A DNA stretch of 63,898 nt, counting the filler. It is 10 parts of 10 records of this genome, joined end to end, with 100 filler letters (N's around TTAATTAATTAA, not from the genome) between each part and the next. Parts side by side here need not be neighbours in the genome. Positions count along the whole stretch, not along the records: positions 1 to 12,258 come from SRR7504441_4033; 9 more parts are not named here. One strand, given 5' to 3'. The position numbers and the translations under genes are program-made. Under the pieces are notes generated by a model. It was not told the DNA's origin, searched no databases, and saw only the letters and a program-made list of their open reading frames with translations. Positions 1-41,826 of this stretch are shown one piece after another; positions within the stretch are counted from its first letter, which is position 1, and each line of letters opens with the position of its first letter.

Positions 1-110
1 TGGCCAGGCAGAGGTACCCAGTGCCAGGCAGTACAGGAGTGCCACCTACACGGTGCTCTGCAACGTAGCCACAGGTGGAAACTGGCCACAGGCGCTCCCA
101 GATGGCTCGT
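1..110 (-). other. Start of PKS dehydratase domain (runs off window)
   Basis: YVAEHRVGGTPVLPGTGY matches the DH HxxxGxxxxP motif. Confidence 0.8.
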
Positions 111-3100
111 GGAGCTACTGGGAGCTCATCGGCTGTTATTCTACTGATTGTTGATTCTTTGGTATCCCACCAAGCGTATACGGCCTGCCGATAGAGCACT
201 ACTGGTTGCTCAAGAGTCGCTGCCTCTTGGTCTAAGGCACTTGTCTTATGCGCCAGAACGATGTGGGCGTTGGTTCCGGCAAATCCAAAGGAGCTGACTC
301 CTAGCGTCCCTCCTGGTGGCAGTCCCGAGCCCTGCGATGGCAGGCACACTGGTAGTTCGTCGAGCTGTATGTGCGGGTGAGTCCCCAACAGGTGCAAGTT
401 GGGACTGATGCAGCCGCGTGAGAGAGAATAAACACTCTTCACCACCCCTGAAGTGCCAGCAGCGAACTCTGTGTGGCCAATATTGCTCTTGAGGGCGCCA
501 AACAGGCTACGTATGGGCGCTGGGTCCTCGTCGTGGACCAGAGCTAAGGCTGCTGCTTCGATCGGATCCCCCAGTGCTGTGCCTGTCCCATGACCTTCTA
601 TAGATCCGATTTTCAGAACCCCTAAGGCCTGTTCGATCACTACTTGCTGAGCTAGACCATTCGGAGCCATGAAACTGGCACTGCGACCGTCTTGATTGGT
701 GCTAAATCCCTCTACGGAGACGAGCTTGCAGTCGCGTCGGCTATCTTGCTTGGTAGAAGCACCGGCTGAAAGGAGGACTTTATTTGATGTACAATTGCTC
801 AGTACAACAACTGAGCAAGCGTCTCCTCGCCCATAGCCATCAGCTCTGCGGTCAAAAGTCTTACAGCAGCCATCTGGGGAGAGAGCGCCTAATGCACACA
901 TCACAGTCCAAGCTCCCAATCCGAATGTCAGATTGACCCCTGCACTGACCGCATGCTCACAGCTGCCTCCATGGAGGCCTCGGCATGCTGCGTCCATGGC
1001 CACCAGCGATGATGAACATGCTGTGTCGATGCTGCAACATGGGCCCTTCAGGTCCAGAGTGTACGAGATCCGACCACATGCAGCGGCTGCATTGACGGCA
1101 TGGGCAGTGTACGTGTTTACGCGATGCACAAAGGAACCCCAACCGGTTTGGCCAAACCCCAACCAGACTCCTGTCTTCGGCGTCTCCGCGATGGTATGTG
1201 CCTTACGCGCTGCAGCAAGCGCTCCAAACACCGTCTCTAACAGGATACGCTGATGTGGATCGGTCGCCTTGGCTTCTAACGCATTCATGTCGAATGCAAG
1301 ATGGTCAAAGAGCTCAGGGTGATCGATGAAGTGACCATGCTGCACGTAAAGGTCTCCTGTTGCTGATTCAATGTAAGATTCTGGAATAAGTTGCAGAGAC
1401 TCGTACCCTTGAAGCATCATTGAGAAGAGTGATTTTGGTGCCTTGCACTTGCCAGGTGCAGTGCACTGCATGCTGACCACACAACAGCTACGAACAAGAG
1501 CACTCGAGGCAACTGCGGGCGCGACCTGGTTGGTTTGAGCACTGGCATAAGAAGTAGTCTTTGAATCCAGATGCTCTGCAATGGCAACAACATTGGGGTA
1601 CTGGAATACCAGTATCGCAGGGAGCTGCTTAGCATCTTCACTTAGCAACCCCTGTAGTTTACGACTAAGGCGCACAGCACTGAGCGAGTTTAACCCAGCT
1701 TGCATTAGCGGCTGCATCCGACCGACACTATGGCCTATCAAGTCTTTGACCTGTTCAAGGACAGCGTCTTCCAAAAGGGCCCGAGCGGAAGTGGGTATGG
1801 GAGGACGCTGAGACCTCGCATCATTCGGAATTTCCTGGACAGCAGCACCTAAAGGATCTGGCAATCTCTGGCGGTCCAACTTGCCAGAGGCATTCAGGGG
1901 CCATGCCGCCATTGCCATGAGCTGTGATGGCACCATGTAAGCTGGAAGGTTGTGCTTGCACACCTCAATAACCATGTCAGTATCGATTTCCTCGGGCAAT
2001 ACGTATCCTATCAGACAATCAACCCCCGATTTGTGTAGCAGTACAAGCGCGTGCTGTACCCCGGGTGCGCTCTGAATGACTGCCTCCACCTCATTCGCCT
2101 CAATCCGCTGCCCATTCAATTTGATCTGAAAATCAACACGGCCAAGGAACTCCAGGGTGCCATTCGCTAGCCACCGGACTCGGTCACCAGTAGCATAAAG
2201 CCGCTGCTTAGACCAGAACGAGTTGTAGAAACTGCGGGCAGTGGTGCCGGGACGAGCAATGTAACCACAGGAAAGCTGGATCCCACCAAGCTGCAGTTCG
2301 CCAGCAACTGCAACAGGAACCAGCATTTGGCTATCAACTTGTACAAAACAGCTCAGGTTGGGCAGGGTTGTACCGATCGGTACATGATAAGCACCGTGCA
2401 TTTCTTCCCCATAGCATTCATAGCCATGCGATGCGATGGTTGCTTCTGCTGGACCATACCGGTTGGTGAATTTAAGATGGTGTCCGCAGCCGAGCACGCG
2501 AGTAGGCAGTGATGGCTTGCATGCTTCGCCAAGCACAAACACATGGCGTACATGAGAAGGAAACAGCTCCTTGTCAGGGCACATGTCTAGGTAGAAAGCC
2601 AGAACGGAGGGCACCAGATCAATGAATGCCACCACCTCGCTACTCAGTAAATGCACTGTGTGTAGCGGATTAAGCATGGATCTAGAATTGGCAAGCACTA
2701 ATCGTGCACTAGATGTCAATGGACACCAGACAAGCTGAACTGAGGCGTCAAATGTGAAAGCAGTAGAATGTAAGACCCCTTCGTGAGGTGCAAGACCCAC
2801 CGTCTCGCTGGTATGAGCCAAATACGCTGATAGTGATCCCTGCTGCACCATCACACCCTTGGGCCGGCCTGTTGACCCTGACGTGAAGAGCACATACGCG
2901 AGCTGCTCGGCAGGAACCTCTGTGGATACTATTCCGGCACACCCCTTGTTCGTATCTGGTTCTGCATCGTGTAGTTTCCATTTTTCACCTGCGATCACGG
3001 TCACCCGGGCGAAGTGCTCCGCAATAGCCAGAAATCGACGTTGCACCACTACGGCAACACAGTCGCACGACCCTGTCATGCATGCCAGTCGCACTAGTGG

Positions 3101-6100
3101 TTGACTTGGATCGAGTGGGACATATGCCTGCCCAGCGCGCATGATGCCCACGATCCCAACAATCTCGTGCACACTCCTCTCCACGCACAGCCCCACCACC
3201 TCTGCAGGCTGGTATCCAGCGCGCATTAGCTGGTCAGCCAACTCTGTACTCTGCCACTCTAATTCGCCGTAGCTCACCGCATGACCCTCAAACAGCAACC
3301 CTGTGGCTGCAGCCCTGCTTACTGTGATCTGCTCGAACCGTGCAGGTGCCGGTACTGTGCTGAACACAGCGGCAGTGGCGTTCCATCGCTGCATCACCAA
3401 CTCTGCCTCGCGGACTGGTATTATTAGTAGTGCAGCAAGAGCTACGTCCGGCCGATCTGCCACAGCCTGCGCCAGCTGCATGAGCAGGCGGCCCAATCTT
3501 GCAACCTGAGGCCACACAGCGACTTAAAATCGCAACAAGTAGTTATATTAGGTTTGATTTACCGTGTCGCGTTGAAACAAGCCCGGATCATAGCTGATGT
3601 GCCCAAGCCAAGCCAGCGTCTGTGAGTTCGAGGGTGACAAGTGCAATTGCAGCTGCACAAGCGCAGGCTGGTGCGCATAAGCTCCAAGTGTTTCCAACCC
3701 ATTCATTGGTGGCAGGCGCGACTTATGGAGTCCCCTCTCCCACAGAAATAAGTTCTGGTACACCGGTGGGTGTAGAGCATCTCGCCGTAGGTGGCGAAGA
3801 GATCCCAGAATCCGCATAAAGGGCACAGATCCATGATGAAGACAGTCCAGCACCACTTTGCTGGTAGCTGTCACCAGGGAGCGGAAGCCTTGTTGTGGCT
3901 GTACAGTCACATGGGCAGCCAGGGTGTTGACAAAGTAGCCCACCAGTGGCAGTAGCAGCTGGTGTTCTCGATGAGCATATGGAAATCCCACCACCACAGC
4001 TTGCTGCCCGGCATACCTGCATAGTGATGCTGCCCAGCATGCTAACCCAACGTGCATCGGTGTGGCGCCAGCAGCAGTCCCCCCAATGCTTTCGGGGATT
4101 TGTACCTCCACTTGACCGGGCGGATCCTTTGTCGCCTGAACTTCGCGAGTGTCAGCAAGATCAAGTACAGGCAGGTCGCCATCGTGCAAAGTCTTCTGCC
4201 AGTAGGATAGGCCTTTCTCCAGTGCACTCCTTTCTCCACCCCACTCGAGCGTTGCGTGGTGCCACGCGGCCCAGTCTAGGTATTGCACGGGCAGCTCTGC
4301 CAGCTCTGGACTACGACCAGACACTGCAGAGCTGTACGCTGAAGCTAAATCAGCCATGAGCGGTGAAAAGGACATGCCATCGCAAGCAATGTGATGCATT
4401 GTCAATACCACCCAGCACTCACTGGTCGATACAGACTGTACTTGCACCACATGAAACCTTAATGGTCCAGCTGTCTGAAGGTCTAGCTTCTCTTCATTCG
4501 CAAGCTTGACTGCTATTTCTGCAGCCTTGTGATCAGGCACAAGAACAGTGGAGTCCATCACTGACGCCAGAGAAAACAAGGATGTACTTGGACTTGCATC
4601 TACTTGCTGCGTTGCACTGCCGTCCTCTGAGTGCATGTATCTAGTCCTTAGGATATCATGCTTCGCCACCGTTGCCTGGAGTGCAATCGAGAGTGCGTGG
4701 CTGTCTAGCTTGCCGCTCAGTTGGATTACGAGGCTGATGTTATAGTTCGCATCCGGGTTGAGCTGCAACAGAGTCCACATCTGCTGCTGCATTGGCGACA
4801 GCGGCCAGCGTCGCTTCTGGCTGTCGCTATTTATACGCCTCTGCAAGCGTGGCTTACAATTGATGGCAGATTGCACAGTCGTGCCAGAAATTTCGAGTGC
4901 ATACCATTCAACAGAACCATCACGATAGCTGTCAGCAGCCCGCTTGAGCAGATGGGGATATCGCTCAAGCTGTGTCACTTCCCCTGCAAACCCGTGCGCG
5001 ATAACATGCCACATATCAATTTGATGCTTGTGCCCTGCGGTGCCGCCCCGGGTGGTCCATGTCCAGTGGTCATCTGCAGCCTTGTGGATAGAGTGGGACG
5101 AACCATGAAGTGGCGGTCTCTCCTCTGGAAGTATGAAGCGAATTTCTGCATTCGTACAGTTCTCATCAAATTGAAATTCCATACTAGCTCCCTTAGCAGA
5201 GTGTATACTCAAAAGCAGCGCGATCCCCGGAATCGTAGAAGAAACCATGCACGTGCGGCCGCAGCTACAGCTGAGAGTGCGGGTGACCTCGTCCCATTGC
5301 TCACTACCATCCACACAGATCAAGAGACATGTCTCAGGAAGGTCCATCCACCATACACCGCTGAACCAAGTTGGAAAGCTAGAGGTCTGCAAATTATCCA
5401 ATCGAGCTCGCCTGTGAGCCAGATGGCTTGTGAGTGCCTTGTGTGCTATTTTCACCGCCGGTGTTTTATCGAGCATATATTTTGCTTTGGTCAGAGGCGT
5501 AAATATTGACCGTGCAGTTTGTGCAGATCGCAACATCGGAGCCTGGACCGCCGATAAGAGGTCATCAAGGTCCAACGTGCAGCTAGCTCCTCCGATTGGA
5601 AACGCTTTGAATAACTCTTCCCAGACCTTGCTGGTCCTTCCGCCCGCATCTCCCTCGTAATACGAAATCGTACCCCTCTCCTTTGCTTGGGACAAAAACT
5701 CAGAGTATGCCGGGGTTCGCGTCACCTCACCATCGGCCATCACCTTCAAGAGTCGGCGGAACCTGTAGGTAACAAACTCCTTCGTACCACGGTCGCACAA
5801 GCGCCTCTCCCACTCGTCGTCGTCGATTCTGTGCATGGTGTTCAACACAATCCTGCGTTTCTCGCTACCATCCATGCTTCTGTAACTGATCAAGCATGAG
5901 TCCAGCTCTGGGTTAAACTGCCACTGCATCACATGAGGTTTTTCGTAGGCATTGAAAAGCGCGACACCCAAAGATGTCGCATCATACGTCCAGGATGGCT
6001 GTCGAAGACACTGGAAAGTGCTGGTTTCGGTGCACCACGAGCACGTGTTATCATGCCCAATCAGTGTTAGTTGTTCGGCATGAGGATTGTCTTCCATCCA

Positions 6101-9100
6101 CCACAGGCCTTTCAGGAATTGCGGACAGGTCAAGAAGGATCCCTGCTGCAGCTTAATAGGCCATCTTTCGAGTCCTTGCTCATAAGTACTCTTCTTGATT
6201 CTGTTACCAAGGATGGAAAGAGCAAGTGCTTCTATCATCGTCTGTTCAAGCGCCCTTCTTTCAGCTTCAGTGCCGGTGTTGGACGATTCTTTGGCGCATG
6301 ATGCCGGCGACGGGACTTCTTTGGGTGCTGCATTTGTCATATGTTGATTGGCCGGGTAGAATGCGGGACTTTCAGCCTGGGCGCGAGATCCGTGGAGGTC
6401 TAACAACTCAGCTTCATCGTCTGCCGATGCAGTGCTGACAATGGGCATATTGCCATCGAGGCTCAGAATCTGATCTGACATTGCCTTGATCGTCGTATGC
6501 TGGTAAAAGTCAGATGGTGCAAGCTCTAAACCATGCTCTGCAGATATGGCTCTTGCAAGCTGTACTACTTGCACAGACGTCAGCCCGAGTTCCCCCCAAG
6601 TACTGTTAAGAGACACAGCGGCTGGGTCCAGTTTGAGGTGGCTTGCCACAAGTTCATGAACCGTGGACATAGACAGGTGTTGCGGACTGAGATCCAGATA
6701 GTCTGCCACTAGGCCGTGCACTTTGGTTGTCACGGCTTGGTCGCCCTGTATAGTACCGCTACTCTGTGGGTGATCGCCTCCTCCGTGCGGCACAACCTTC
6801 AACCACTCACCGCTGGCATGTAGTTCATACCACTTCGCAATGACCGGATAAGTATGCCGTCCAGCCATGATACGGTTGGCAGCCTGCAGCCCAGATACCA
6901 TTGCATCCTCGTGAGACATGATTCCATTAAGGTAAGATCCAGCAAAGTAGGCGCCCTTGGAGCCTTGTAGGGCCTGCATCTGACACCGGAGCTCGAGAGC
7001 GCGACAGTTGAGCTGGGTGTGCGAGAAGCGCGGGCCCTCGACTCCATCATGGATTGGCAACTGGTTACCATACGAGTATGTGACAAACACGGGCTGCTGT
7101 GTGAGGTTACAAGGATTGCATCTCGTGATTGTCAAGGTGTCCGACCAGTTCGGAGTGTCTTCGGCTCCAGGCAGTACGCGGTTCAGGGCAGCCCACCTTG
7201 TTTGATCCTCCGGCATCCATGAGGCATCACGGTGCAAGGTTGCAGATCCTCCGCGCATGTCAAATGCAGCAAGGACGGAACGCTCTTCGGAAGTTGCACA
7301 TGATGCAAGTACCTCGAGTGCCTGATCTGGATGGGTTGCAACGATCAACTGTGCACATTCGACTTCATACTCAGCACCCGTTTCTCTGATGGCGACATTG
7401 AGCTTGCATTGGTCGTTGGTGCGTTGCAACAACTTGGTATTGCACCCGGTGATGAATTTGACGCCGCGTTGTTCCAGGAAAAGTCGGTAAGACTCGCTAT
7501 AGCTACCAGATCCGCCTCGTACCATCTGTTGGTCGTAAATAAGCTCCAGCTCGTCGCCACTACGACTTGGGCGAAATGCGCTCTCCAACCAGATCCGGAT
7601 GGGCCAGTCCAAGTATGTGCTGAGCTTTTCTCCAGGAAATGCTCGCACAATGAAACCCAGCACCGTGGACGGTTCGAATCCGTGCAGTCGCGCAAATTCA
7701 CGCACTGTTGTTGTGGTGGTAGGCTGGTTAATGAGCATGTGCAGCGCGGCCTTCATGAACCTTTCGACCTCACTAGCATGTGGAGAAGAAGTTGTATCGG
7801 AACCGCGAACAAATTCGCTGAAATCGAGCATCCACTGCTTTGGCTTGTAGGTTTCCACACCAATCAAATCAAACAAAGCGTATACATTTGGATGGGTGTC
7901 AGGGCTCATGCTGCCACCAAAGGCCGGATCAGTCGACCACACCACGTTGTCGTGCTCATCCCTAGTTTCAAAGGAGCAGGCATGACCGCCTACCACTTCC
8001 TGCTTCTCGAGCACAGTGACCGAATACCCAAAAGTGGATAGCGCCAGTGCTGCTGACATGCCCGCGGCTCCAGCTCCCACCACACACACACTGTTGGCCA
8101 GATCAGAGGATAGTGACAAAGCCACAGTTGGCAAAGGAATCAAATGTACCAGAAGCCGCTTTGGGGCATTCGCTTGTTTGACTTGTGCAACTTCGAACTC
8201 AGCTTTAGGACCGACGAGATTCCATCGCACCCTGGACACAATACGAGCAACAGCTAGCTCTATACTCGAAGGCACAAGATCTTGTGCTGGGCATCGTCTG
8301 CCAGTCAAGCCACCTATCCCAAACACTAGCTCTGCTGCTTTCCTGGCATTATCTGGCAGCTTCTTGTTGAACCTGTCTGGTACAAATCGATTAGGGTCTT
8401 TGAATATCCCGGCATCCCGCATCGAATGGAAGATGCTTGCCTCGATGTGAGTGCCTCGAGGAATACAAAGTCCGCTCAGTGTCAGGTCCTGTGATGCAAC
8501 CACATGGCAAAATGGGACAGGAGTGTGTAACCGGAGCACTTCTTTGATGATACTGTTCAGAAGCGTCGGAGACGAAGCGACTTCATGTTGTTGAGCCTTG
8601 CAACCTCCTTCAAGGACCTCTGTCCGAACCTTCTTACAAACAGATGGATCATTCGATAGCTCAGCAAGAACGGCACTCAGTGCTCCGACCATCCCAGCAT
8701 ATGCAGCGAGCACGACCGTCCCAAGGCTCTGCCACACATGCTCTTCATCCGTTTCTTCATCACGGCCCTCAGGGAAAAGCCGCTTGGAAGAGCGTATCTT
8801 AGCCACTATGGTATCCCTGGCCTCGAAGGACTGTTCGGTGGGCGTTACAATACCATCAAACAGAGAATCAAAGCTCGAAGACGCTTCAGGCCAATCGATA
8901 TCCAATAGAAGCGCGCAGATGAGGTCAGCTACATATACTTTGACTTCGATGACCCAATCCAAGGTTCCAAGCGACAGCCAACGTCCCACATAGCGATCTG
9001 TCAAGTTACACACTACTTCTGCGCTTTGAGATGAAGAGGTTGCTAACCAATCAAGAGTCCAACACTTTTGCCTATCATGAGCGATACCATTCTCGAACAG

Positions 9101-12100
9101 CGAAATTCGGTGGCCTTTGAATAGGTCACTTGCGACAGGAACCTGACCAAGAAACCAACACTTTGAAGTCTGCCCCTCATCAAATGCAACTTGCACGTCC
9201 TTCAGAGAGGTCACGATGCAGGTAGGTCGATGCTGTACGTTGAGTTGGAATACGGGTCCATACGCTGAGATATTTTCATCAACGAAGGCACGCCAGTTTG
9301 AAGTCATCTGGTGCATATTTCCAATTGGATCGCCTCCACCCCCTGGGCCTGGGATGTGACTTAGATCAAGAGCAGAGGCGACAGGAGGGTCGACACTAGT
9401 CGTGTACGCTTCTGCAGAACGCTCCCAGCATCGTATGAGCTGCTCCCATGACACCCTGTCCTCACTCCTACCGCACTCAGCGATGCTGGAAGCACATGGC
9501 ACATAGTTGCATGTGCCGTACGCAATTTGGTTACAAATTCGGGCCAGCCTACTACCGCCTTTAGAATGCAGGTCGTCATAGGTACGTCGAAGCGTATGTT
9601 TGGCTGAATCTGTGAGGTCGAGTCCTGGATTGTCCAGAAAAGGACACTTATACCCCCTGGAACTGGGTATATTTGCCGCCTTTGCTGCAGTAGGCCCTGA
9701 AGGTGGCTGGCATTTGTGATCCCAGATTCTCGAGAGCAGCATGCACATGTGGAGCCCGCTTGACTTGCAGTTTTCTACAACTAGGTGCACATTCACACCG
9801 CTTGCTGCGTGTCCGTGCACGGCTGCGGTCTTTGTGACCAGACTAGTCTCCTGGACTGGTGCCAGGGGTTCCTTAAGGTGTTTAGTGGGTCGCATTAACT
9901 TCAAGTGGGTCGAAGATGTTCGTGTACTGAATGCTTCCAGTGTAACTAGCAGCGCCAACAGCCCAGAGGCAGCTACAGTGTGCCCATAGTTGGCCTTGTG
10001 ATTCTGTAGAGTCCCAGGAGGCAACCAGGTATTTCTTAGAGCCAACAACTCCGTCGCATCCGCCACAAGCTGGCCTATTCCATGGATATGCAGCAGTTCC
10101 ACAGAACATCCTGCCTGAGCTGTCCTCACTGCTGACTCTTGTGACTCCTGGTCCGGGGAGAGGAGCGAAGGTAGCCTGGGACGGTTGTGCGTCACAGCAG
10201 ACCTACTAAAAATTCCAGAGTGTTCTTGGCTGTTGCCAAGAGCCTGCAGCACCAAGGCCACGCATGCCTCTCCACGCACTAGGCCATCGGCAGCCTGGTC
10301 GAGTGGACGGCAAACTCCAGTGGGTGATAGAATGCCCTCCTGCAGCATGCCTCGACTCACCACCGGCTGGAGCATCAGTGTAACACCAACTACCAACGCA
10401 GCATCACACGACCTCCCTACAATCTCCTCTCTGGCATTGTGCAGCGCTAGATGTGATGAAGTGCAGGCTACCTCCTCATGGTAACAAGGGCCCTGTAATT
10501 TCAGGGCGTTGGCTAATAGCCTCGGTAGATTACAAGTGACCATGGAGGTCCCAAAGTCGTGACTGATCGCTGCAGTGAATACTGCTACCACGCCTCTTAA
10601 GTTGACACTGCCCAGCACCGCCTCTGTACCGACCTCCATAGCTAGCCGGGCGTGGAAGTCAAGTTCAGCGACACCCAACTCGGTAAGGCCAAAGTAGGCT
10701 GCGTCAAAGAAGTCAATGCTTTGCAGAAACGCGCCTGAGCTCGTACCTCGACCACCAGCATTCCAGCGGCTCGGAGGTGTGTGAGTAAGGTAACAAGTTG
10801 CGCTGGCGAGTGATGGCCAAAGGGGGCCAGCGACTCGACTAGCCCGTCCAACAATAGCCACTCCCACCATGTCAACGACGTGCTGTGCTTTCGCTGGCAC
10901 TGGGTTCGCCATGCCAGTAGAGATCCGATCAAAGATGCACGTAGCTGCCGCAGACGAAGTGTCACAATCCAAAAGTAAGGTGGACGGGATCTCGAAACCA
11001 AACTGCGAGTGCACCAGCTCGGAGGCTTCGATCATCTTTAGGGAATCCAGCCCTGCAGCCGTCAGCGAGCTCTCCGCGGCAAGCTGGTCGTTCAAAACAT
11101 GCTGCATGATCTCCAGCACCCTGGAATGAACCCACTGCTTCAAACTGGCCTCACTTGAATCTACTGGTGGCAGCTTGTCTGCGCAAAGGGCCTTTTCAGG
11201 GCTCGGATCCTGTGGGTAGATGGCGCTGGCCGACTCCGCAACCCAATGAGCAATGCACTCAAACATCTCCTTAGTACTATCATGGCTCGTGGTGCACTCG
11301 CCCGTGGCTGCTTGCTGACGCCGGTCGTGCCAGTCTAGGAAACCCTGCTTGCAGGCCTTGCGCCGAATCTTCCCACTGGTGGTCTTGGGCACAGTCCGTT
11401 CCTTTAGAAGAAGCATTGCATAGCATCGCAGCTGGTGAGCATCCAACACCTTAGCCTTGGCAGCCTGAATTGCGTCTTGGCACGCTTGATTGCTCGGATT
11501 GCCCTTGAACTCGGCGATTAGCACCAGATGCTCTGTCCCATCAATCTCCACTCCGAATGCAGCCGAACAGCCTGGACGAAATGCAGCGTGACTTGCCTCA
11601 GCAGTGCGCTCAATATCTTGAGGATACTGGTTGCGCCCTCGAACAATGATCAAATCCTTGAGCCGGCCACACACATAGAGCTCGCCATCATGCAGGAACC
11701 CAAGATCGCCAGTCCGCAAATACTCGACTCCGTCAAGCTTGGCTCCGAAAGTCTCCTCGCTCAGCTCAGGCTTGCCCCAGTACCCCTGAGCCTTGCTTGG
11801 ACCACTCACCCATATCTCGCCCACGCGGTCAGCTTCCAGCTCTGCAGCGCTCTCCTGGTCGACTATCCGAATGCCCACCCCTTGACCAGGCGTACCGCAG
11901 CTCACCAGCTGCACCCACAGCTCAGCTACAGCTGGTTCAGGCAGAGGCTGGGGGAGCACACACCTCACAGTAGGGCTCCTCGGACATCGAATGCACAGTA
12001 ACAGTAACCACGTTTCTGCCCAGATCCGCAGTGCTCGCCCTCAAGATTGTCGGCGTTCGCAGCTCAGGTCCCCGCCCTGTCACATACACCGCTGCACACA

Positions 12101-12258
12101 CACGCAGTCATAAGCTACGCCATGTCATTATTTAATGCACACCGTTCTCGGCCATCCCCAGGCAAGGATAGCAGGCGCCGCGCCGGAGACCACACTTCTG
12201 AAACTTGGCTGCGAAGGCCTCGACTGTTTGTGCGCGCACTGGCTCGCCACCCGACATG
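1..12258 (-). CDS. Hybrid FAAL/PKS/NRPS megasynthase, partial at both ends (FAAL-ACP-KS-P450-FAD oxidoreductase-ACP-X-X-C-A-T-KS-DH...)
   Basis: The 2806-aa ORF 3548..11968 extends upstream across GT-AG introns 12092..12142 and 11909..11963 (SGGEPVRAQTVEAFAAKFQKCGLRRGACYPCLGMAENAVYVTG, FAAL-like). It extends downstream across the in-frame GT-AG intron 3506..3562 into an open frame running to base 1, with A, carrier, KS and DH motifs that I translated by hand. Confidence 0.92.
255..1490 (-). other. Ketosynthase domain (KS2), canonical
   Basis: DPHQRILLE, GPCCSIDTACSSSL, CKTFDRRADGYGRG, EGHGTGTALGDPIE, KSNIGHTE, GVSSFGFAGTNAH. Confidence 0.93.
1560..1790 (-). other. Carrier (ACP/PCP) domain 3
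   Basis: PLMQAGLNSLSAVRL...LPAILVFQYPNVVAIAEHL. Confidence 0.85.
1860..3400 (-). other. NRPS adenylation domain
   Basis: Hand translation: AYVPLDP, LAYVLFTSGSTGRPKG, FDAS, NRYGPAE, GELQLGGIQLSCGY, LYATGD, GRVDFQIKLNGQRIE, LPAYMVP, NASGKLDR. Confidence 0.92.
3570..4810 (-). other. NRPS condensation domain
   Basis: PLSPMQQQMW, YNI, HDILRTRY, intact HHIACDG, YLDWAAW, VGYFVNTL. Confidence 0.92.
6470..6730 (-). other. Acyl carrier protein domain 2
   Basis: WGELGLTSVQVVQLARAISAEHGLELAPSDFYQHTTIKAM. Confidence 0.8.
6860..8095 (-). other. FAD/NAD(P)-dependent oxidoreductase domain (COG2907 / amine-oxidase-like)
   Basis: VCVVGAGAAGMSAA...VLEKQEVVGGHA, HPNVYALFDLIGVET, ATHPDQAL, LHRDASWMP, QGSKGAYFAGSY...HEDAMVSGLQAA. 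Confidence 0.85.
8130..9360 (-). other. Cytochrome P450 domain, CYP74-clan-like
   Basis: KEVLRLHTPVP (ExxR), FKDPNRFVPDRF (PERF), FGIGGLTGRRCPAQDL (heme Cys codon at 8293..8291), I-helix VLAAYAG with no acid-Thr pair. Confidence 0.88.
9770..10870 (-). other. Divergent ketosynthase domain (KS1)
   Basis: IDFFDAAYFG, EVACTSSHLALH (Cys), CRPLDQAADGLVRGE, HIHGIG (His), KANYGH (His). The C-terminal SSFG motif is degenerate. Confidence 0.85.
10930..11140 (-). other. Acyl carrier protein domain 1
   Basis: AAGLDSLKMIE phosphopantetheine Ser motif directly after the FAAL. Confidence 0.85.
11340..12258 (-). other. Fatty acyl-AMP ligase (FAAL) domain, C-terminal part
   Basis: [72 protein letters not shown]. 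Confidence 0.9.
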
Positions 12259-12358
12259 NNNNNNNNNNNNNNNNNNNNNNNNNNNNNNNNNNNNNNNNNN
12301 NNTTAATTAATTAANNNNNNNNNNNNNNNNNNNNNNNNNNNNNNNNNNNNNNNNNNNN
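12259..12358. other. Artificial contig spacer
   Basis: N44-TTAATTAATTAA-N44 with stops in all six frames. Identical spacers at 16762..16861, 19970..20069, 24373..24472, 30822..30921, 34081..34180, 48016..48115, 57197..57296 and 60687..60786. Confidence 0.98.
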
Positions 12359-12743: not shown

Positions 12744-15700
12744 CTAGAACATAGCAAGCGGATGATTGTCCAACCGATCTGCAATTGGGTCTTCCACCAC
12801 ATATTTGACCAGAGGCGCCAAGTGCTGGCTCATGATCATCCACAGCGCCTCGGCGGGGAGCACATTGTCAGCCAGCGACATCTTTTGAGCAACCCGGGCC
12901 AGGAGCCGCGCAAAGTCGCGCCTGCTCACAGTGAAAAACTTGGATTGGCCCTCTGTGCCATGCGCAATCAGCAGCGCCTCGACATCGCCTGCAGCAAATG
13001 AAAGCAGCTGGGCGTCATCGAGGAGTGCATGCAGCTGTTGCAATGAGAAGGATTGATCTGGGTGACCAACATAGTGCGATATGATGTCGTCCAGACCCAT
13101 CACGGCACACTCCTGGTGCCGCTCGAACTGTGCCACCGCCCAGCCAGGCAGCTTAGCCCAGCTGCAAGGCGGGCTGCTGGGAATGGCCGGAGTGGATGAC
13201 TTGCTTGAGGCTGCTGCGATCGCCCGGGGGTGAGTTGGGTCGTCAGGCAGGTCCACGCAAGAGCAAGCAACCGGCAAGAGGTGCTCGGTCAGCAATTTAT
13301 CAAATGCAGAGAGAGCACAGCAGTCCGCCCCCCCAAACACCACGCGGGCTACGGAAGCGAGCACAGATAGGAAACCATCCCAGGACAAGACCGGCTTGAT
13401 GCCCGGTCGAGTAACCGCCATTGCAATCTGGGTGATCTCTGCTGGGGAAATGGCTCCCTCAGGCAGCATCAGCTTGGCACAGAGCGCTCGCAGCCCTCGG
13501 AGCGGCATCACACCATCAAATGCGCTCTCAGTGGCAACCAGTGGAGCCACGAAGCTCTTCCAAGGCTTCTGGGCGCTGCCTGGCGAGGCCTGCCAGTGAG
13601 ACCTCGGTGAAATACCAGGTGCAGGAACCGGTGTGGACGAGATCACGCGTAAATTGTAGTCATTCTTACGTGGCAGCGAGAAAAAGCACCAGAGATGCCC
13701 AAGCAGCTTTGTGGTCTCTGGGACAGCGATATGCTTCTTCAGTGCTTGGTGAAAGCCAATTAGACGCCTCTGCCACAGCTGATGCACAGCAATGTTCATT
13801 TCGTGGTGACATGCCAGTCGTGAAATCAGATGGCCGACCCTGGTGGCTGGGTCAGCCTCTGAGGTCCGCTCGACACATGCGCGCAACAACCGAAGCCAAT
13901 CAGACCAGGTCAGCACATCAGTTTGTCTGGGCTCGACTGCTGCACCAATCATCTCTTCCAGCACCTGCTCGAGGTCTTCTTGGCTCAAGAGCTCAGGCAC
14001 AATCGATGTCTTGGAAAGCACCTTAGACACCTCACTCATCCTGAGAGTCAGTCCAAGTGTGTCAATGTGCCCAGCCTTGCTCTTCTCGAGAGGGCGTTGC
14101 TCGAGCTTGGGGTTGGGCCTACCGTAATAGTAGAAGATTGATTGCAACAGTGTCCAGTTCTCCTCAAGTAACGCCACGACCGCCAGCTCATCTATCCTTG
14201 CATAGGCGCTCGCCATCAAACCGGCTGAGCCGCTCTTAGCCAAAGGGAGGATGCTCTGCCTAAGTAGCAAGCGCAATGCATCCCGGGCGATCGCTGTGTC
14301 CGCCCAGTCCTGACTGCTTCGGTCAATATCAGACTCTCGATCGCATGCCATGGCCACAAGCGCCAGCAGCAGGTGATGCATAGAAATGCACATAGAACGA
14401 TTCCACTGAGAGCCAAAGCAGCTGGAGAACACCTGGTCGACCAAATGACGAGAGTCGACCGCGTCGAGGCTGCGACCAAGCGCAGTTGCAAACAGCGAAA
14501 AGCCACGTGTCTGGTCGTCAAGCGAAAGCAGGCTGGGGGTCAGCTTTGAGTCAGCCATCAGCTGCAGGAACTGCGAGACAGACAGGCCGTCCTTTTGATT
14601 ATTCAGTTGGTACACTGTGTACAGCATCTCTATTGCTGGCGCAAATTCCTGCTCGCACATAACCGCCTGAAGTGAGCCAAGATTTGGGTCCGGGATCAGT
14701 GACTTCACCAGCTCCCCGTCAAACTCGGCTAGAGCACGGATATGAGCCCTGGGTCGGCCATCATGCTCGCCTGGAGGCATGGAACGGTGCGCCTCTGCAG
14801 AAATTTGGCACCCAATCGACTCGTGGTCATCATCCAGATCTGATTCTGAGTATACCTCCTTGTTTTCCACCATTCCTGAGAAGTAGTCCTCGCATGCCCT
14901 CTGCAGCTCGGGCAGAGAGATGGCGCCATCACGGTTTGTGTCGTATCGCAGCAACCGGCTGCGCTCTTCCAGCAACCAAGTTGTAAACTCATGTTTGGGC
15001 AGGAAAGTCAGGAGCTCGTTCACTGTGAGCTCACCATTGCGCTTGTGGCGATCGGCTTGGTTCATGATCCAGTCGGCCCACTGCGCAGGAGTCCTCTGGA
15101 CTGGCTCGGATCCGCTTTCTTCTGTGTCCTGCGGTGAATCGAGCCCCTGGCATGCCGGCTCTGCAGTCTGTGGAGCTCCTGGCGACTGTTGATCCCACAG
15201 TGCAGCAGTCAAGCCGGACAGTATCTTTGGAGACATGGGCTGCTCAAACAATTTCCCCATTTGCTCAGAGAACTCACCAAAGTCCATCAGCCCATCGTGC
15301 TCGTCAATCGATGTCTCGATCATCTCGACTTGTTCATCACTCAACCCTTTTGGATTGCCACCGTCCACTCGAGCGCACACCCACTTGGCCACAGACATCA
15401 GATCGCGGGTCTCGAGGACACCGCTGTCGTCAAGATCGAGCCTCTGAAACTCGTCGTTTGCTCCCTCCAACACCTCAGAGAGTGGTCTGGTTGATATCTC
15501 CTTCTCAGGCAGGGGTTCGGGATCTGTTGGTGTGGGCTCTGGCTCTGCCTGTGGGAGCTCCACATTGTCCCTGCGAGGAGTGAGCTGGTAGATCTTGTTC
15601 ATTGTTTCCTCACGCAACTTCCGAGCTGCCTGAACTTTCTCCATAGCTGCTGCTTCTTCACTCTGGGCCTTCTCCAGAGTCTCTTGCAGCTTGATTAACT

Positions 15701-16761
15701 CTTTGGTTTTCACATCTGAATCATCCGCCGGCACCACAATCTCCAAGTCCTGGTTAGCGGAGGAAGTAGTGTCAATCGTGACAACTCCATCAAGCACTCG
15801 GGACAGGTGTTCTTGAGCTGATCCTTCTGCAGGCTCAGGTGTTGTCTGCGACTGAATTTTATCCTCATTGTCTTCCATAGAATCCGAGAGGTACATGACA
15901 ACCTTGTCCTCTTCGCTCTGAGGTGAAGGTGAGTTGGGTGCTCTCATCTGCGAATGGGTTGATTTTCCCTCACTGGCCTCCCCCTCAAAGGCATCCACCG
16001 CACCCTGGCCATGGACTCGCTCAGTTTCATCAATGCAGCCGTCCTGATTGGATTCAATCTGATCCAAAGCGGGCTCAGTGACAACAAATTCGTCCTCCTG
16101 CTTGACGGATGAAGACACATCAATTGAGACAATCCCATCAAGCACATGGGTTAGGTGCCGAGTAGATTCGCTGGCTCGCATACGAATCTCATGGGTCTCA
16201 CTCTCGGGCGGTGAAGGCCGAGTAATCACCCGATCTGATCCAAGTGCCTCCACTAACGCTTCTGGAGCAGGACGTGTGGAGTCTCCTTTGAAGGTCTGTT
16301 GTGACATGTGCTCCATAGGCTCATCAGGCTGAGCTTGCAGTGCAGTAGATTTGGGCGCAGTGGGCTCTTGTTCGCGAGAGCTCAACACAGCTTTCCACGA
16401 AGACTTGAACCAGGTAGAGAACTCATCAAACTCCATCCCACTGCCGTTTAAGTCGAGCCAGCTGGCCAGCTTGGCCTTGTGTTGACTGCGCTCGGAAGGA
16501 GAGAGAGGCACGCCACCTGGATTAAAGCAGTCCCACAGCCATGTTGCGAGCTCAAACAGTGCAGATTTCTGAAGCGCTCCACTGCTGTTGATTTCCAATA
16601 GCATGCGATCGAATCGCGCCCGTGCATGTAGGAGCGCCCTGGACATATCGTTTGAGAGGTGACAACCGAGCCTGAGCGTTGAAGGCCGCTCGGGCGAACG
16701 AGGCAGCCCTGTGCCTTCTATCTGGGTCCGGACCAGCCCAGCCTTGATGCTGTCCTGGGTC
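12744..16761 (-). CDS. Large multi-EF-hand protein, 5'-partial
   Basis: The 1300-aa ORF stays open to the contig edge. EF-hand-like loops: DLDDSGVLETRDL, DEHDGLMDFGEF, DRHKRNGELTVNEL, DTNRDGAISLPEL. Confidence 0.75.
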
Positions 16762-16862
16762 NNNNNNNNNNNNNNNNNNNNNNNNNNNNNNNNNNNNNNN
16801 NNNNNTTAATTAATTAANNNNNNNNNNNNNNNNNNNNNNNNNNNNNNNNNNNNNNNNNNNNA

Positions 16863-19814: not shown

Positions 19815-20248
19815 CGTCGCCTTGTCTCTGCAGCTGTGCCTTCTTGGGATCACACAGCTAGCTAGGAAACGGTCCGCGCGCAGCAGGTATGATTGGGATT
19901 CGAAGATTTACTTATGGTTTACTATTCTATACCAGATCAGTACTATGGCACGATTAATGCAACCGGACTNNNNNNNNNNNNNNNNNNNNNNNNNNNNNNN
20001 NNNNNNNNNNNNNTTAATTAATTAANNNNNNNNNNNNNNNNNNNNNNNNNNNNNNNNNNNNNNNNNNNNCAGCCTCTCGAAGCAGGCTAGAGCTCTCACC
20101 CTGTTTCGTCCTCGTCGACGCCCCGTGACTAGTGCGTGACTCCTCACTCGTCCTGTTCCCGTCGGTGCTTCCGCAACCCTGAATCACAACGGCGACTCGG
20201 CAGCAGGGCTCGGGTTGGGTGTGGCTCGCGTGAGCGGCTGGGGTGGTG

Positions 20249-39093: not shown

Positions 39094-41826
39094 TTAGTCC
39101 GACGTTATGATCGGAAACAGATGGTTGGGGCTTGACCCACCGGTGTAGTAGAAGAAACCGCCGAACGGGGCCTCTGCAATCTCATTCGGGTGGATCCAAG
39201 CTCGCTTCACAATCCCGTGCGACTGATAGCTCTTCCTCTCTTCGAGGGTCACCAGTCGGCCAGCATCGACCAGCTGCCGCACCAGCGGCGCATTCGCGTC
39301 CCAGTCCTGCCGGTCGCCAAACTGGATCACGTGCCCTCCTTGGAAGTGCCACACGATCACGTTGATCCCGACGATCGTGAATTCCTTGTCAAAGTACACA
39401 AACCCGCCTCGGAGCATCAACCGGAGGATGTTGTCCAGCTCCTGCTTGCCCTCGGAGACCCATTTGCATCCCTGCATCCCGAGCCGCCTTCTGTTAGCGT
39501 CCATAGCCCCGTCGCAGAACGAGACATACTCTGCTGTCAGCGGGATCCCGGCCACTCTCCGGCTGTGCACGTCCAGATTGATCGGCTCGGCCGCGCTGAA
39601 GCATACTGACTTCCACGGGAGCTCCTGCTCGATGGCTTCGCACGAGGCTTTCTGCATCATCTCGGTCACATCAAGCAGCCCGTCCCGGTCAACATCGTAC
39701 CGCCTGAACTGCTCTGCGGTCCCACCGGCGGCAATAAACTCGTCCAAGTCTACCCGGCCGTCCTGGTTGTCGTCGAGGTCGTTGATCTGGGTCTCGACCT
39801 GCTTCCGGAGCATGACGGCAACCGTCTGCGCCGAGTCGACCTGGGCCACCTGCTGGCCGTGCGTGAATTGGTCTAGGAAGGCCATGATAGTCTCCCTGGT
39901 GTAGACATCCTCTGCCGCCACATAGTGCAGCTTCTTGCCGCCCTCCGAGTCGCAAATCGCCCTCCGGTGCTCGTGCCTAAGACAGAGCGAGCACGGCCGC
40001 ACTGCGTTGGCCAATATCCGCAGCACAGGGTGCGCCAGAGGGAAGTCCGAGCTCGACTGTATTGGAGAGAACCGCTCCCTGATCGGCACAAACGAGTGCG
40101 ACCGGTCCTCGAATACCTCGAGCACAGGCGTGCGGTGCTCGTTGTTGATCTTGACCAGAAAGTCGGCAAGTGGCCCGAGCACGTCCACCGACTTGCGCGT
40201 GTTCTGCATAGAGGTCCGGAGCGTTTCTTCTGGCACGAACCTGCCCGTCTGCAGCCCTCGGTTATACGCTCGAGAGAGCACCGTCTCTTCGGCGCAATAT
40301 ACGTAAAATATGGCAATCCGGTACTGCGGAAATCGCTCGCGTATTTTGGCGAATTCTTGCCTGAACCAGTCTGAGTCGCCCAGGCTACCGTCGATCCAAG
40401 TATTCTGTCCTCGTGTGAGCGCGATCTCTGTGGCGAGCTCCTGGAGGAACCCGCTCTCTTTGTGACACATTGTGCCGGCCTGCTGGGTGCCGTTGGTCTT
40501 GTCCGCTTCGATGTACCCGCGCCACTCGGGCATAACCGACTTGAAATGGTCGGGGTCTATGTGGACAACGTTCTCGAGCTCGAACAAGCCGTGCTGCGAG
40601 AGCCAACTCATCGCGTGCCCCTTGCCCGCACCCATCGCCCCGCACGTATACACCAGCCATGGCCGCTCCTGCGAGTACATACGGACCGCCACGTCGGCAA
40701 CCACCTTGTCCTGCCACCGCTGCCTTTCGTTTGAATAGTTTGTGTGGTACTTGTAGTCAACTCTCTCTCTCACGTGCACGTAATTGCCCACAAGCGGCCC
40801 GTGCATGGCGGGATCGTACTGCTTGCTGCTGCTAGTGCCCCACTGGTTGCCTGGCGCCACTTTGTAATCCGGGTGGCACTGGGTGCGATAGGTCTCGACC
40901 CCGTAATCGTACGAGTCCGGCACCGAGAAGCTATGCGGGTGGGCGTAGTCGGAAACAATCGTCTGCAAAAACCGGTTACGGCGCCAGGCCCGGCAGAAGA
41001 GCCGGTAGCTGAGCAGGCCGGTGTGCGCCGGGTCGATTTTGTCAAACAGTCTGTGCATCTCGTGCTTGGACAAGTCCAGCTGCATCTCCGAAAGCGCCGA
41101 GATGAATGTCTGAATCGTCACGTGCCCGTTCAGGTCCTCCCCCTCCGCCGACTCCTGCTCGCCCTCCGGGAGCGTCCGTAGCTCGATAAACATCTTGCGC
41201 AGGTCCGAGGCCGATCGCGTGCCTTGCACACCGCTGCTCACCCGCCTGACACCACCGCTGCTCGGGCACTCCCCCCGACACGTCTCGTCGGCGCAGTCGT
41301 CGGCCGGGGCGGCGGTCGGCCCGGTCCAGAAGACGCTACGGTGCTGCTGCCCGGAAGACCCCCGGAGCAGGCCCGATTCGTGCGAGGCGCGTGTGTCGGG
41401 CGTCGGACTGGCGGCGGCGGCGGGCGGGACCGGGAGACCGGCGGCCTCGAGGGCAGCGGACATCTGGTCGACTAGCTGCTGAAGCCGTTGGTTGTCGGCC
41501 TGGAGCTGCTCCCGCTGGATCGAGGCCACGTCCAGCTCCAGCTTGAGCAACTTGCATCTTTCAGCTGGACCGGCCATCTTCTTCTCCCGAGCATCAGCCT
41601 CCATCTTCGACTGTTGGCAACGGAACGGCGGCCCCTTCCAGAGCTGCATGGGCTGCAGCACGAGCTCGCCGCTGCAGCCCGGCGGCGAGCCGGGGAGCGA
41701 GCCGGGTTGCCAGGGGAGCAACAAGCTGTCGGGCCGATCGGAGTCGATCGCCGAGCTAGAGAGAGCCGAGAACGCCGAGTCGGGCCTGGGCAGCACCGGC
41801 ACGGTGCCACGGTCCAAAACCCCCAT
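39094..41826 (-). CDS. Zeta-toxin-like P-loop kinase with EF-hands
   Basis: TCGAMGAGKGH (P-loop), IDPDHFK, HKESGFLQE, IDGSL, RAYNRGLQTGRFVP; EF-hands DPAHTGLLSY, DDNQDGRVDLDEF, DVDRDGLLDVTE. Confidence 0.85.
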   Translation of the reverse strand: MGVLDRGTVPVLPRPDSAFSALSSSAIDSDRPDSLLLPWQPGSLPGSPPGCSGELVLQPMQLWKGPPFRCQQSKMEADAREKKMAGPAERCKLLKLELDVASIQREQLQADNQRLQQLVDQMSAALEAAGLPVPPAAAASPTPDTRASHESGLLRGSSGQQHRSVFWTGPTAAPADDCADETCRGECPSSGGVRRVSSGVQGTRSASDLRKMFIELRTLPEGEQESAEGEDLNGHVTIQTFISALSEMQLDLSKHEMHRLFDKIDPAHTGLLSYRLFCRAWRRNRFLQTIVSDYAHPHSFSVPDSYDYGVETYRTQCHPDYKVAPGNQWGTSSSKQYDPAMHGPLVGNYVHVRERVDYKYHTNYSNERQRWQDKVVADVAVRMYSQERPWLVYTCGAMGAGKGHAMSWLSQHGLFELENVVHIDPDHFKSVMPEWRGYIEADKTNGTQQAGTMCHKESGFLQELATEIALTRGQNTWIDGSLGDSDWFRQEFAKIRERFPQYRIAIFYVYCAEETVLSRAYNRGLQTGRFVPEETLRTSMQNTRKSVDVLGPLADFLVKINNEHRTPVLEVFEDRSHSFVPIRERFSPIQSSSDFPLAHPVLRILANAVRPCSLCLRHEHRRAICDSEGGKKLHYVAAEDVYTRETIMAFLDQFTHGQQVAQVDSAQTVAVMLRKQVETQINDLDDNQDGRVDLDEFIAAGGTAEQFRRYDVDRDGLLDVTEMMQKASCEAIEQELPWKSVCFSAAEPINLDVHSRRVAGIPLTAEYVSFCDGAMDANRRRLGMQGCKWVSEGKQELDNILRLMLRGGFVYFDKEFTIVGINVIVWHFQGGHVIQFGDRQDWDANAPLVRQLVDAGRLVTLEERKSYQSHGIVKRAWIHPNEIAEAPFGGFFYYTGGSSPNHLFPIITSD

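Follow-up and report, generated by a model that had tools for sequence, protein, structure and literature searches.

A cytochrome P450 embedded beside a flavin-oxidase-type domain in megasynthases belongs to a clade placed next to standalone CYP74-like enzymes

What chemistry would a cytochrome P450 perform when it is built into the middle of an assembly-line enzyme? The question is raised by the first contig (positions 1-12258) of the stretch of DNA analysed here, a window of 63,898 bases. On its minus strand this contig encodes a hybrid polyketide synthase-nonribosomal peptide synthetase (PKS-NRPS) that contains a P450 domain (8114-9373), directly followed by a flavin adenine dinucleotide (FAD) amine-oxidase-type domain (6689-8092). 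To our knowledge P450s built into PKS or NRPS modules are uncommon. The original prediction likened this one to the CYP74 clan, the allene oxide synthase (AOS) and hydroperoxide lyase (HPL) type, and proposed oxylipin-type chemistry on a chain tethered to an acyl carrier protein (ACP). The sequence comparisons described below place the domain in a clade of embedded P450s that is the probable sister of CYP74-like enzymes, and we suggest, with a probability of roughly 0.45, that the P450 uses a peroxide provided by the oxidase to oxidise an acyl chain tethered to a carrier.

The peptide strings quoted in the original prediction are all present in a single minus-strand reading frame, inside an uninterrupted open reading frame (ORF) of 2806 amino acids (P0001; 3548-11968), which is an open frame within one exon. 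All coordinates in this gene refer to the minus strand. The P450 occupies residues ~866-1285 of P0001. Near its N-terminus lies a Pro/Gly-rich hinge, IPGPGGGG(DPIG) (9332-9355), that aligns to the IPGxYGxP motif of CYP74-like proteins and to the PPGP-type motif of CYP76AH, and this is followed in the translated frame by YGPVFQLNV (9236-9262), DVQVAFDEGQTSK (9161-9199) and FKGHRISLFENG (9086-9121). The groove of the I-helix contains VLAAYAG (8693-8713), with Ala-Gly in place of the acid-alcohol pair, and in our alignment Ala1088 (8705-8707) occupies the column of the CYP74 catalytic Asn. The K-helix ExxR with its 'PPV'-type motif is EVLRLHTPVP (8513-8542), whose E294 and R297 do not vary in any of three alignments. 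A PERF-type sequence, FVPDRF (8369-8386), supplies the remaining residue of the ERR triad; F346 and R350 are invariant in the same three alignments, and P348 is invariant in one and nearly so in the other two. The heme-binding loop, FGIGGLTGRRCPAQDL (8276-8323), carries the Cys ligand (Cys1226, codon 8291-8293) with an F-to-C spacing of 10, three above the canonical value, and has a three-residue insert relative to CYP76AH in the HMMER alignment. Both G370 and C377 of this loop are invariant in three alignments. Several of these strings had been taken as parallels specific to CYP74, a role that they do not sustain: IPGP...PIGNMHQM and YGPVF align equally well to microsomal motifs of CYP76AH and CYP46A1 (HMMER), and EVLRLHxPVP and FxPxRF are general P450 motifs present in the consensus of a 50-sequence alignment.

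The domain matches the Pfam P450 family PF00067 with E = 2.2e-28 and 99.7 bits (cut-off 22.8). The structure model that had been named as a check was built with AlphaFold2 from a 50-sequence alignment and gave a confident P450 fold, with a mean predicted local distance difference test (pLDDT) score of 86.7 and a predicted template-modelling score (pTM) of 0.89. Superposition of this model on the 50 solved P450 entries listed gave Z scores of 32-38 (VIA-align). The retention of the ERR triad and the Cys ligand, together with the predicted fold, indicates that the domain is a real, complete and heme-competent P450.

A search of 1.8 billion representative proteins yielded 6692 that match the domain at E <= 0.001. 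Many of the high-ranking matches are tandem P450 fusions whose scores are summed over several stretches, and these were discounted. The best single-domain matches inside long proteins are P0005 (129 bits), P0007 (110), P0012 (94), P0022 (87), P0026 (86) and P0036 (76.5). With the window protein these make a set of seven embedded P450s, and all seven proteins carry an Amino_oxidase or NAD_binding_8 match together with adenylation (A), condensation (C) or PP-binding domains. Although the embedded domains share only 19-28% identity with the query, none of the seven departs from the common pattern at the Cys ligand, ExxR, PERF, the His/Lys of helix C or the Gly residues of the loop.

That invariance bears directly on the suggestion that the P450 is catalytically dead and serves as a scaffold or docking element in the module. 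Glycopeptide synthetases offer an analogy in their X domain, which is condensation-like and serves to recruit P450s. The P450 considered here is indeed strongly diverged: the nearest row in our tree, an embedded relative, is no more than 27% identical to it, and the usual catalytic residues of the I-helix are gone. Conservation of these heme-binding and fold signatures across the seven members and the confident predicted fold both run counter to such a role, and we regard it as very improbable.

Outside the embedded set, the best full-length single-domain matches are standalone P450s of 430-453 amino acids, such as P0014 and P0042. P0014 scores 93 bits over query residues 22-420 and has 24% identity to the window domain. 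We assembled 13 proteins of this kind, P0158 among them, seven from the 150 best matches listed and six found later; they come from metagenomes and genome assemblies. Their sequences contain IPGxYGxP and, in the I-helix, FNAWAG, and in their heme loop W-A-N-G is followed by nine extra residues and N-K-M-C-A-G. When compared with the PDB, P0014 matches Arabidopsis CYP74A over its full length at 3.7e-39 and guayule CYP74A2 at 8.4e-37, the next family falling to 2.3e-15. A profile of seven members (A1) matches CYP74A at 6e-65, and its only three matches at or below 1e-30 are all CYP74A. A word-indexed search with the CYP74-like alignment found no named plant CYP74 and one protein labelled 'hydroperoxide dehydratase' by JGI, a label borne by one of the CYP74-like proteins. 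We assign the standalone proteins to a CYP74-clan-like group by virtue of this label and of the strong PDB matches of both P0014 and the profile. CYP74-clan enzymes are already known in some Proteobacteria (PMC8124189).

The relationship between the two sets was analysed in a tree of 56 rows and 448 columns (IQ-TREE, LG+C20 PMSF), for which no root was inferred. Besides the window domain, the six other embedded domains and the 13 CYP74-like proteins, the rows comprise two P450s whose heme loops are unusual and 34 further P450s, three of which grouped with these two. The seven embedded domains form a clade with support of 98/95, and this joins the 13 CYP74-like proteins at 100/100, both sister groups standing on fairly long stems. 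The next neighbour, at 99/99, is a group made up of P0038, P0063, P0071, P0116 and P0120. Two of its members were searched against the PDB, P0038 and P0116, and both match CYP120A1 and then the CYP152 peroxygenases, so we refer to the group as CYP120/152-like. An approximately unbiased (AU) test rejects the alternative grouping of the embedded domains with the CYP120/152-like proteins (delta log-likelihood 31.2, p-AU 0.0016), an alternative that was chosen after the tree had been seen. Profile comparison with hhalign leads to the same pairing. The embedded profile scores 417 against the CYP74-like profile and 331, 310, 299, 258 and 206 against five other groups, and each of the two is the best partner of the other.

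On this evidence we consider the embedded domains to be a previously uncharacterised clade of P450s in NRPS/PKS-like megasynthases, and the probable sister group of the standalone CYP74-like P450s. They are not assigned to CYP74 proper because they are without the catalytic Asn and the nine-residue insert in the heme loop. The CYP74 kinship put forward in the original prediction is thus supported in part, as a probable sister relationship, while membership of the clan is not supported: Ala stands in place of Asn, the loop is short, and CYP74 does not figure in the best 60 PDB matches. A phylogeny had been proposed as a check, and the tree joins the domain as a sister to the CYP74-like set, outside the clade in which both signatures occur. 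The classification is weakened by the composition of the tree, all rows of which come from searches seeded with the window domain or its relatives, and which contains no named plant, animal or algal CYP74, nor CYP152, CYP8A or CYP5A.

Direct comparison with solved structures gives a less specific picture. The best 60 of 217 PDB matches of the domain alone are to CYP76AH (4.9e-13), CYP46A1, CYP3A4, CYP11, CYP120 and CYP152 (~1e-7), mostly confined to the C-terminal 40%, and no CYP74 chain is among them, a point against the kinship with CYP74. The profile of the embedded family matches CYP120A1 best (3.9e-33, nearly full length), followed by CYP76AH, CYP3A4 and CYP51, and again no CYP74 chain is found among the best 60 of 441 matches. 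With VIA-align the predicted structure is closest to CYP120A1 (Z = 38.0), CYP90B1 (37.8), CYP21A2 (36.4) and the guayule AOS CYP74A2 (3dam; 36.3). The 3dam superposition, at rank 4, has a root-mean-square deviation (rmsd) of 2.6 Å over 399 residues, the lowest of the 50 rows listed; it lies within 1.7 Z units of the three P450s ranked above it, and the alignment from which the model was made included the 13 CYP74-like rows. Foldseek returned generic P450s from the PDB at template-modelling (TM) scores of 0.69-0.76, with no CYP74 among the rows listed. We take the comparison of predicted structures as non-discriminating between P450 families. A word-indexed protein search with the domain alone returned only three weak matches of plant CYP71 type, and a search of metagenome contigs gave 100 pattern matches and no relative.

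CYP120A1 (2ve3), the cyanobacterial retinoic-acid hydroxylase, is thus both the best solved relative of the embedded profile and the top structural match. This lends weight to another explanation, that of a conventional O2-dependent monooxygenase, which would hydroxylate or epoxidise the tethered chain with electrons drawn from the flavin domain or from redox partners whose genes lie elsewhere. CYP90B1, second among the structural matches, is in line with it too, and P450s that act in trans on carrier-bound substrates are well known. The active-site groove tells against it. Both residues of the acid-alcohol pair are gone in all seven embedded domains; the window I-helix reads A-A-Y-A-G where the CYP120-like rows have the canonical A-G-H-E-T. 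These CYP120-like rows have an aromatic-to-Cys spacing of 7 and fall outside the assembly of embedded, CYP74-like and CYP120/152-like proteins, and the latter two neighbours likewise combine long Cys loops with loss of the pair. A reductase or ferredoxin domain was not found in the visible gene, and no amine-oxidase-fold flavoprotein is known to serve as a P450 electron donor. We consider a monooxygenase of this kind the main rival, and less probable than a peroxide-driven enzyme.

The two signatures of CYP74 could be examined column by column. CYP74-clan enzymes have a nine-residue insertion in the heme-binding loop and, in the groove of the I-helix, a conserved Asn that initiates homolytic cleavage of the O-O bond of the hydroperoxide and is treated as essential (PMC8124189). 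In the CYP74-like proteins the Asn column holds Asn in 13 of 13 and the spacing from the aromatic residue to the Cys is 16 in 13 of 13. In the embedded domains the column is Ala in all seven and the spacing is 10-12 in all seven, the loop being longer than canonical by 3-5 residues (three in the window domain). None of the five CYP120/152-like proteins has an Asn, and their spacing is 10-11 (5/5); in the classical rows, for which the Asn column was not tabulated, the spacing is 7 (31/31). An elongated Cys loop is therefore common to the embedded clade, the CYP74-like proteins and the CYP120/152-like group. Loss of the acid-alcohol pair also occurs in the last of these, so that this trait is not exclusive to CYP74. 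The I-helix sequence FAAYAG of the window domain, P0007 and P0012 is near-identical to that of P0038, and differs from the FNAWAG of the CYP74-like proteins chiefly at the Asn. The caveats attached to the original prediction, that the I-helix Asn is missing and that the insertion in the heme loop is shorter than in CYP74, were both correct.

The embedded and CYP74-like domains nonetheless share a good deal. Both have lost the acid-alcohol pair and place an aromatic residue between small ones in the I-helix groove, the window domain shares the LFD...K and NG..H...K motifs, and neither has a reductase domain. They differ in that the window domain has Ala in place of Asn and a spacing of 10 (10-12 in its family) instead of 16; that the loop begins with F in six of seven embedded members where the CYP74-like proteins have W; and that the window domain is embedded in a megasynthase beside a flavin oxidase-type domain, whereas the CYP74-like proteins are free-standing. 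On the simplest reading, the embedded clade would have left the CYP74 stem after loss of the acid-alcohol pair and an initial lengthening of the Cys loop, and acquisition of the catalytic Asn and of the complete insert of nine residues would postdate this split.

Could the embedded P450 nevertheless be a functional CYP74-type enzyme of the AOS, HPL or epoxyalcohol synthase (EAS) type, rearranging a carrier-tethered fatty-acid hydroperoxide with no need of O2 or a reductase? Its closest standalone relatives are CYP74-like, it has small residues at the same columns as CYP74 where the acid-alcohol pair has been lost, the fatty acyl-AMP ligase (FAAL)-type loading domain of the gene would imply a lipid-like substrate, and the 3dam superposition has the lowest rmsd of those listed. 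Yet the Asn needed for O-O homolysis (PMC8124189) is Ala in every embedded domain, the nine-residue insert is cut to 3-5 residues, and neither the domain nor its family profile finds a CYP74 among its best 60 PDB matches. The rank of 3dam falls inside the tie range of ordinary P450s. Moreover, no lipoxygenase, dioxygenase or other domain that forms hydroperoxides was found in the visible part of the gene or in those large ORFs of the other contigs that were scanned. The oxylipin-type chemistry on an ACP-bound chain that was originally proposed is not supported by these observations, and we judge it improbable.

The constant companion of the embedded P450s is a flavin domain, present as an amine-oxidase-type domain or at least as its N-terminal FAD-binding motif; adenylation, condensation, carrier or hydrolase domains occur in the same proteins. 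The oxidase lies directly after the P450 in the window protein, P0022 and P0026. In P0036 it also follows the P450, with a cytochrome-b5-like insert of the heme/steroid-binding kind between them (residues 1078-1171), and in P0005, P0007 and P0012 the order is reversed, the flavin domain or motif coming first. The fragment P0127 has the same P450, then a cytochrome-b5-like stretch (residues ~270-345) and the start of the oxidase; its b5-like sequence may be of the MAPR/PGRMC type. Full-length homology, over ~410-420 residues, unites the oxidase domains of the window protein, P0036, P0022 and P0026 (5e-49, 4e-40 and 3e-35).

The window flavin domain matches Pfam Amino_oxidase at 1.6e-12 with 47.9 bits (cut-off 19.8) and NAD_binding_8 at 4.7e-10 with 40 bits. 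It has a GxGxxG Rossmann motif, VCVVGAGAAG, and a predicted amine-oxidase fold, consistent with its placement in the MAO family. Its best match in the PDB is LkcE (4.6e-11). This MAO-family enzyme serves as amide oxidase and Mannich cyclase in the biosynthesis of lankacidin, a PKS-NRPS pathway, and releases H2O2 in every catalytic cycle (PMC6162330). Unlike LkcE, a free-standing enzyme whose substrate is a released chain, the window flavin domain is fused between the P450 and a carrier. The likeness is partial.

How might the two domains work together? We propose that the P450 acts as an in-line tailoring domain of the hybrid PKS-NRPS, functioning without NAD(P)H or a reductase and using a peroxide as oxidant. 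The neighbouring oxidase would oxidise a carrier-tethered intermediate and release H2O2 at each turnover, making it the likeliest source of the peroxide, and the pair would oxidise the acyl chain on the carrier that follows. We favour a peroxide-driven P450 because the features needed for heme binding have been kept while the residues for O2 activation have been lost, because no FMN/FAD-NADPH reductase or ferredoxin domain was detected by Pfam in the visible gene, because its relatives on both sides are of P450 types that use peroxides, and because a flavin-oxidase neighbour appears obligatory. CYP74 enzymes act on fatty-acid hydroperoxides (PMC9214053) and CYP152 enzymes use H2O2 (PMC7075034).

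Several points weigh against this proposal. The use of peroxide is deduced from absent residues and from the domain neighbourhood. The closest PDB relative of the embedded profile, CYP120A1, is an ordinary monooxygenase, and some O2-dependent P450s also lack the Thr. In P0036 and P0127 the b5-like domain, placed as it is between P450 and oxidase, could transfer electrons to the P450 and so support O2 chemistry, as the monooxygenase explanation would allow for some of the relatives. The similarity to LkcE is limited to residues 246-423 of the flavin domain, and the best partial matches in NCBIfam are to desaturases of the HpnE/CrtI type, through the N-terminal FAD motif only. The flavin domain might be an oxidase that converts O2 to H2O2, a dehydrogenase or a desaturase.

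Comparison with known peroxide-using enzymes helps to define what is proposed. The CYP120/152-like group shares with the window domain the Cys-loop spacing of 10-11 and a G-[HR]-x-C motif, and it is this group that the AU test sets apart from the clade containing the embedded domains. In the PDB search with the window domain, CYP152 chains match only its C-terminal third, at ~1e-7 (best 9e-8), among the best 60 matches. The CYP152 peroxygenases P450 BS-beta, SP-alpha and OleT have an I-helix Arg-Pro, the Arg of which binds the substrate carboxylate, and use the free carboxylate of the substrate in catalysis. A thioester-tethered substrate would offer no free carboxylate here, and no Arg-Pro pair is present in the I-helix GTVVLAAYAGMVGAL. 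As a separate observation, P0038, P0063, P0071, P0098, P0116 and P0120 are standalone P450s, intermediate between CYP120 and CYP152 to judge from the PDB matches of P0038 and P0116, with a CYP152-like G-H-R-C loop and without the acid-alcohol pair, and P0098 has in addition a C-terminal extension of ~130 amino acids.

The same logic, in which a producer of peroxide is fused or coupled to a heme enzyme that consumes it, is found in the AOS-lipoxygenase and HPL-lipoxygenase fusions of corals, which are catalase-related (PMC5617202), and in engineered oxidase-peroxidase and oxidase-plus-OleT systems (PMC5708271, PMC7075034). The coral fusions differ in using a lipoxygenase and a catalase fold, and the engineered systems are artificial constructs; according to PMC5708271, no oxidase-peroxidase fusion had been observed in nature. 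A more far-reaching idea, which we put forward tentatively and think rather unlikely in its full form, is that the P450 and the flavin oxidase together form a natural oxidase-peroxygenase unit of assembly lines, one that supplies its own peroxide. The LkcE-like domain would oxidise a tethered intermediate and pass the peroxide, as H2O2 or as a substrate hydroperoxide, directly to the reductase-less P450, which would itself be an evolutionary link between peroxygenase-type P450s, with their CYP152-like loop and no Asn, and the CYP74 enzymes that rearrange hydroperoxides.

The remainder of the gene has the domains of an assembly line. The 2806-amino-acid frame begins in the C-terminal part of a FAAL-type adenylation domain (11333-11968; Pfam AMP-binding and AMP-dom_DIP2-like), which matches the A domains of P0022, P0026, P0036 and P0005 in tblastn. 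An earlier piece of the same domain lies in an upstream exon (~12140-12258) that matches P0022 and P0026 (tblastn), with 52% identity to residues 325-364 of P0022. Next come a weak first carrier domain, the ACP (10919-11125; PF23297 at 0.00089, residues 282-350, and a second PP-binding stretch), and a ketosynthase (KS) upstream of the P450 (9914-10861; ketoacyl-synt 2.8e-27, Ketoacyl-synt_C 1.5e-07), whose Cys and both His motifs are legible in the sequence. Pfam detected no acyltransferase (AT) domain in the module. The oxidase is followed by a second carrier (6470-6664; PF00550, best stretch residues 1769-1833), by a region of ~540 amino acids (4829-6451) and by an NRPS condensation domain (3557-4810; PF00668, 5.8e-57).

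An intron of the GT..AG type (~3507-3562) splits the 2806-amino-acid exon from the next exon of the same gene (2-3517), in which Pfam and the sequence reveal A, peptidyl carrier protein (PCP), KS and the start of a dehydratase (DH). Since GT..AG introns flank the frame, and the exons continue the series of domains, the gene is assigned as a eukaryote-type, intron-bearing hybrid PKS-NRPS. The overall order is FAAL-ACP-KS-[P450-FAD oxidase]-carrier-unknown repeats-C-A-PCP-KS-DH. The module reads KS-P450-oxidase-carrier and shows no AT, ketoreductase (KR), DH or enoylreductase (ER); the P450-oxidase pair fills the slot between KS and carrier that usually holds the reductive domains, as in trans-AT-type modules.

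Some further features of the gene may be recorded. The ~540-residue region between the carrier and the condensation domain consists of two diverged repeats (26% identity, E = 1.4e-07) and has no match in Pfam, NCBIfam, Atlas or the collected relatives. Each repeat bears a WWM[ED] motif, forming a tandem domain in the same module as the P450. The upstream intron (~12092-12140), also GT..AG and of ~49 nucleotides, follows ...GMAENG in the region 11960-12140, and a second change of frame just upstream of 11968 could be a very short extra intron or an assembly indel.

One embedded relative could be viewed in its genomic setting. P0036 comes from a metagenome-assembled genome (MAG) of the Saprospiraceae, where a gene overlapping its stop codon (L001:16585-21993, plus strand) encodes a protein of 1802 amino acids. 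This has a weak match to a catalase family in Pfam (26.2 bits, cut-off 25; residues 228-302, NNTPVF) and a second LkcE-like oxidase at residues 505-916, for which LkcE is again the best solved relative (3e-10). There is a possible Tyr-ligand motif near residue 470, with weak PP-binding and hexapeptide-repeat matches elsewhere in the protein. Tentatively, it may present a second heme-type domain paired with the same type of oxidase. The neighbour speaks for a peroxide-based scheme, but the catalase match is marginal, catalase A in the PDB giving E = 0.84 and a single-sequence AlphaFold2 model a pLDDT of 32.7. Genome contigs searched with P0036 yielded only its own MAG. Among 401 sampled genomes of the phylum of the MAG, an embedded-type match occurred only in the Saprospiraceae MAG itself; a second match in this sample (1.7e-26) is an open frame of 497 amino acids. 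A word-indexed search for longer proteins with the embedded alignment returned only P0036 itself, and that alignment has no conserved stretch usable for a search for related loci.

The window as a whole consists of ten separate contigs. Between them stand spacers (12259-12358, 16762-16861, 19970-20069 and six further sites) in which TTAATTAATTAA has 44 N on either side, and for this reason genes on different contigs are not genomic neighbours. Large ORFs on the other contigs are unrelated, encoding an EF-hand protein, a DEAD-box helicase, glycosidases and transporters. One of them (39094-41826, minus strand) has a Zeta_toxin-type kinase domain (2.7e-25) with EF-hands, and a further EF-hand protein lies at 12744-16646; neither has any relation to the P450. 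For the first contig, a fraction of 0.60 of the sampled words is present in one aquatic metagenome run, small fractions are shared by four marine runs, and no RNA run was among the runs listed as containing it.

Searches of an open-access full-text library found no description of a didomain of P450 and amine oxidase, or of a CYP74-related P450, in a megasynthase. The fold and the superfamily are known; what seems to be new is the clade, together with its architecture and its place next to CYP74. As the embedded clade adjoins CYP74 and is without its two signatures, it could show the state of the P450 before the Asn and the nine-residue insert were acquired. If the coupling through peroxide is correct, the pair would be a natural counterpart of the oxidase-peroxygenase fusions engineered for biocatalysis, and one would expect marine plankton and bacteria to make new lipid products from it, oxidised lipopeptides or polyketides of a type not yet explored. 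Were the pair indeed a self-supplying unit, it would mean that oxidative chemistry like that of the oxylipins takes place on PKS/NRPS-bound chains in marine microbes.

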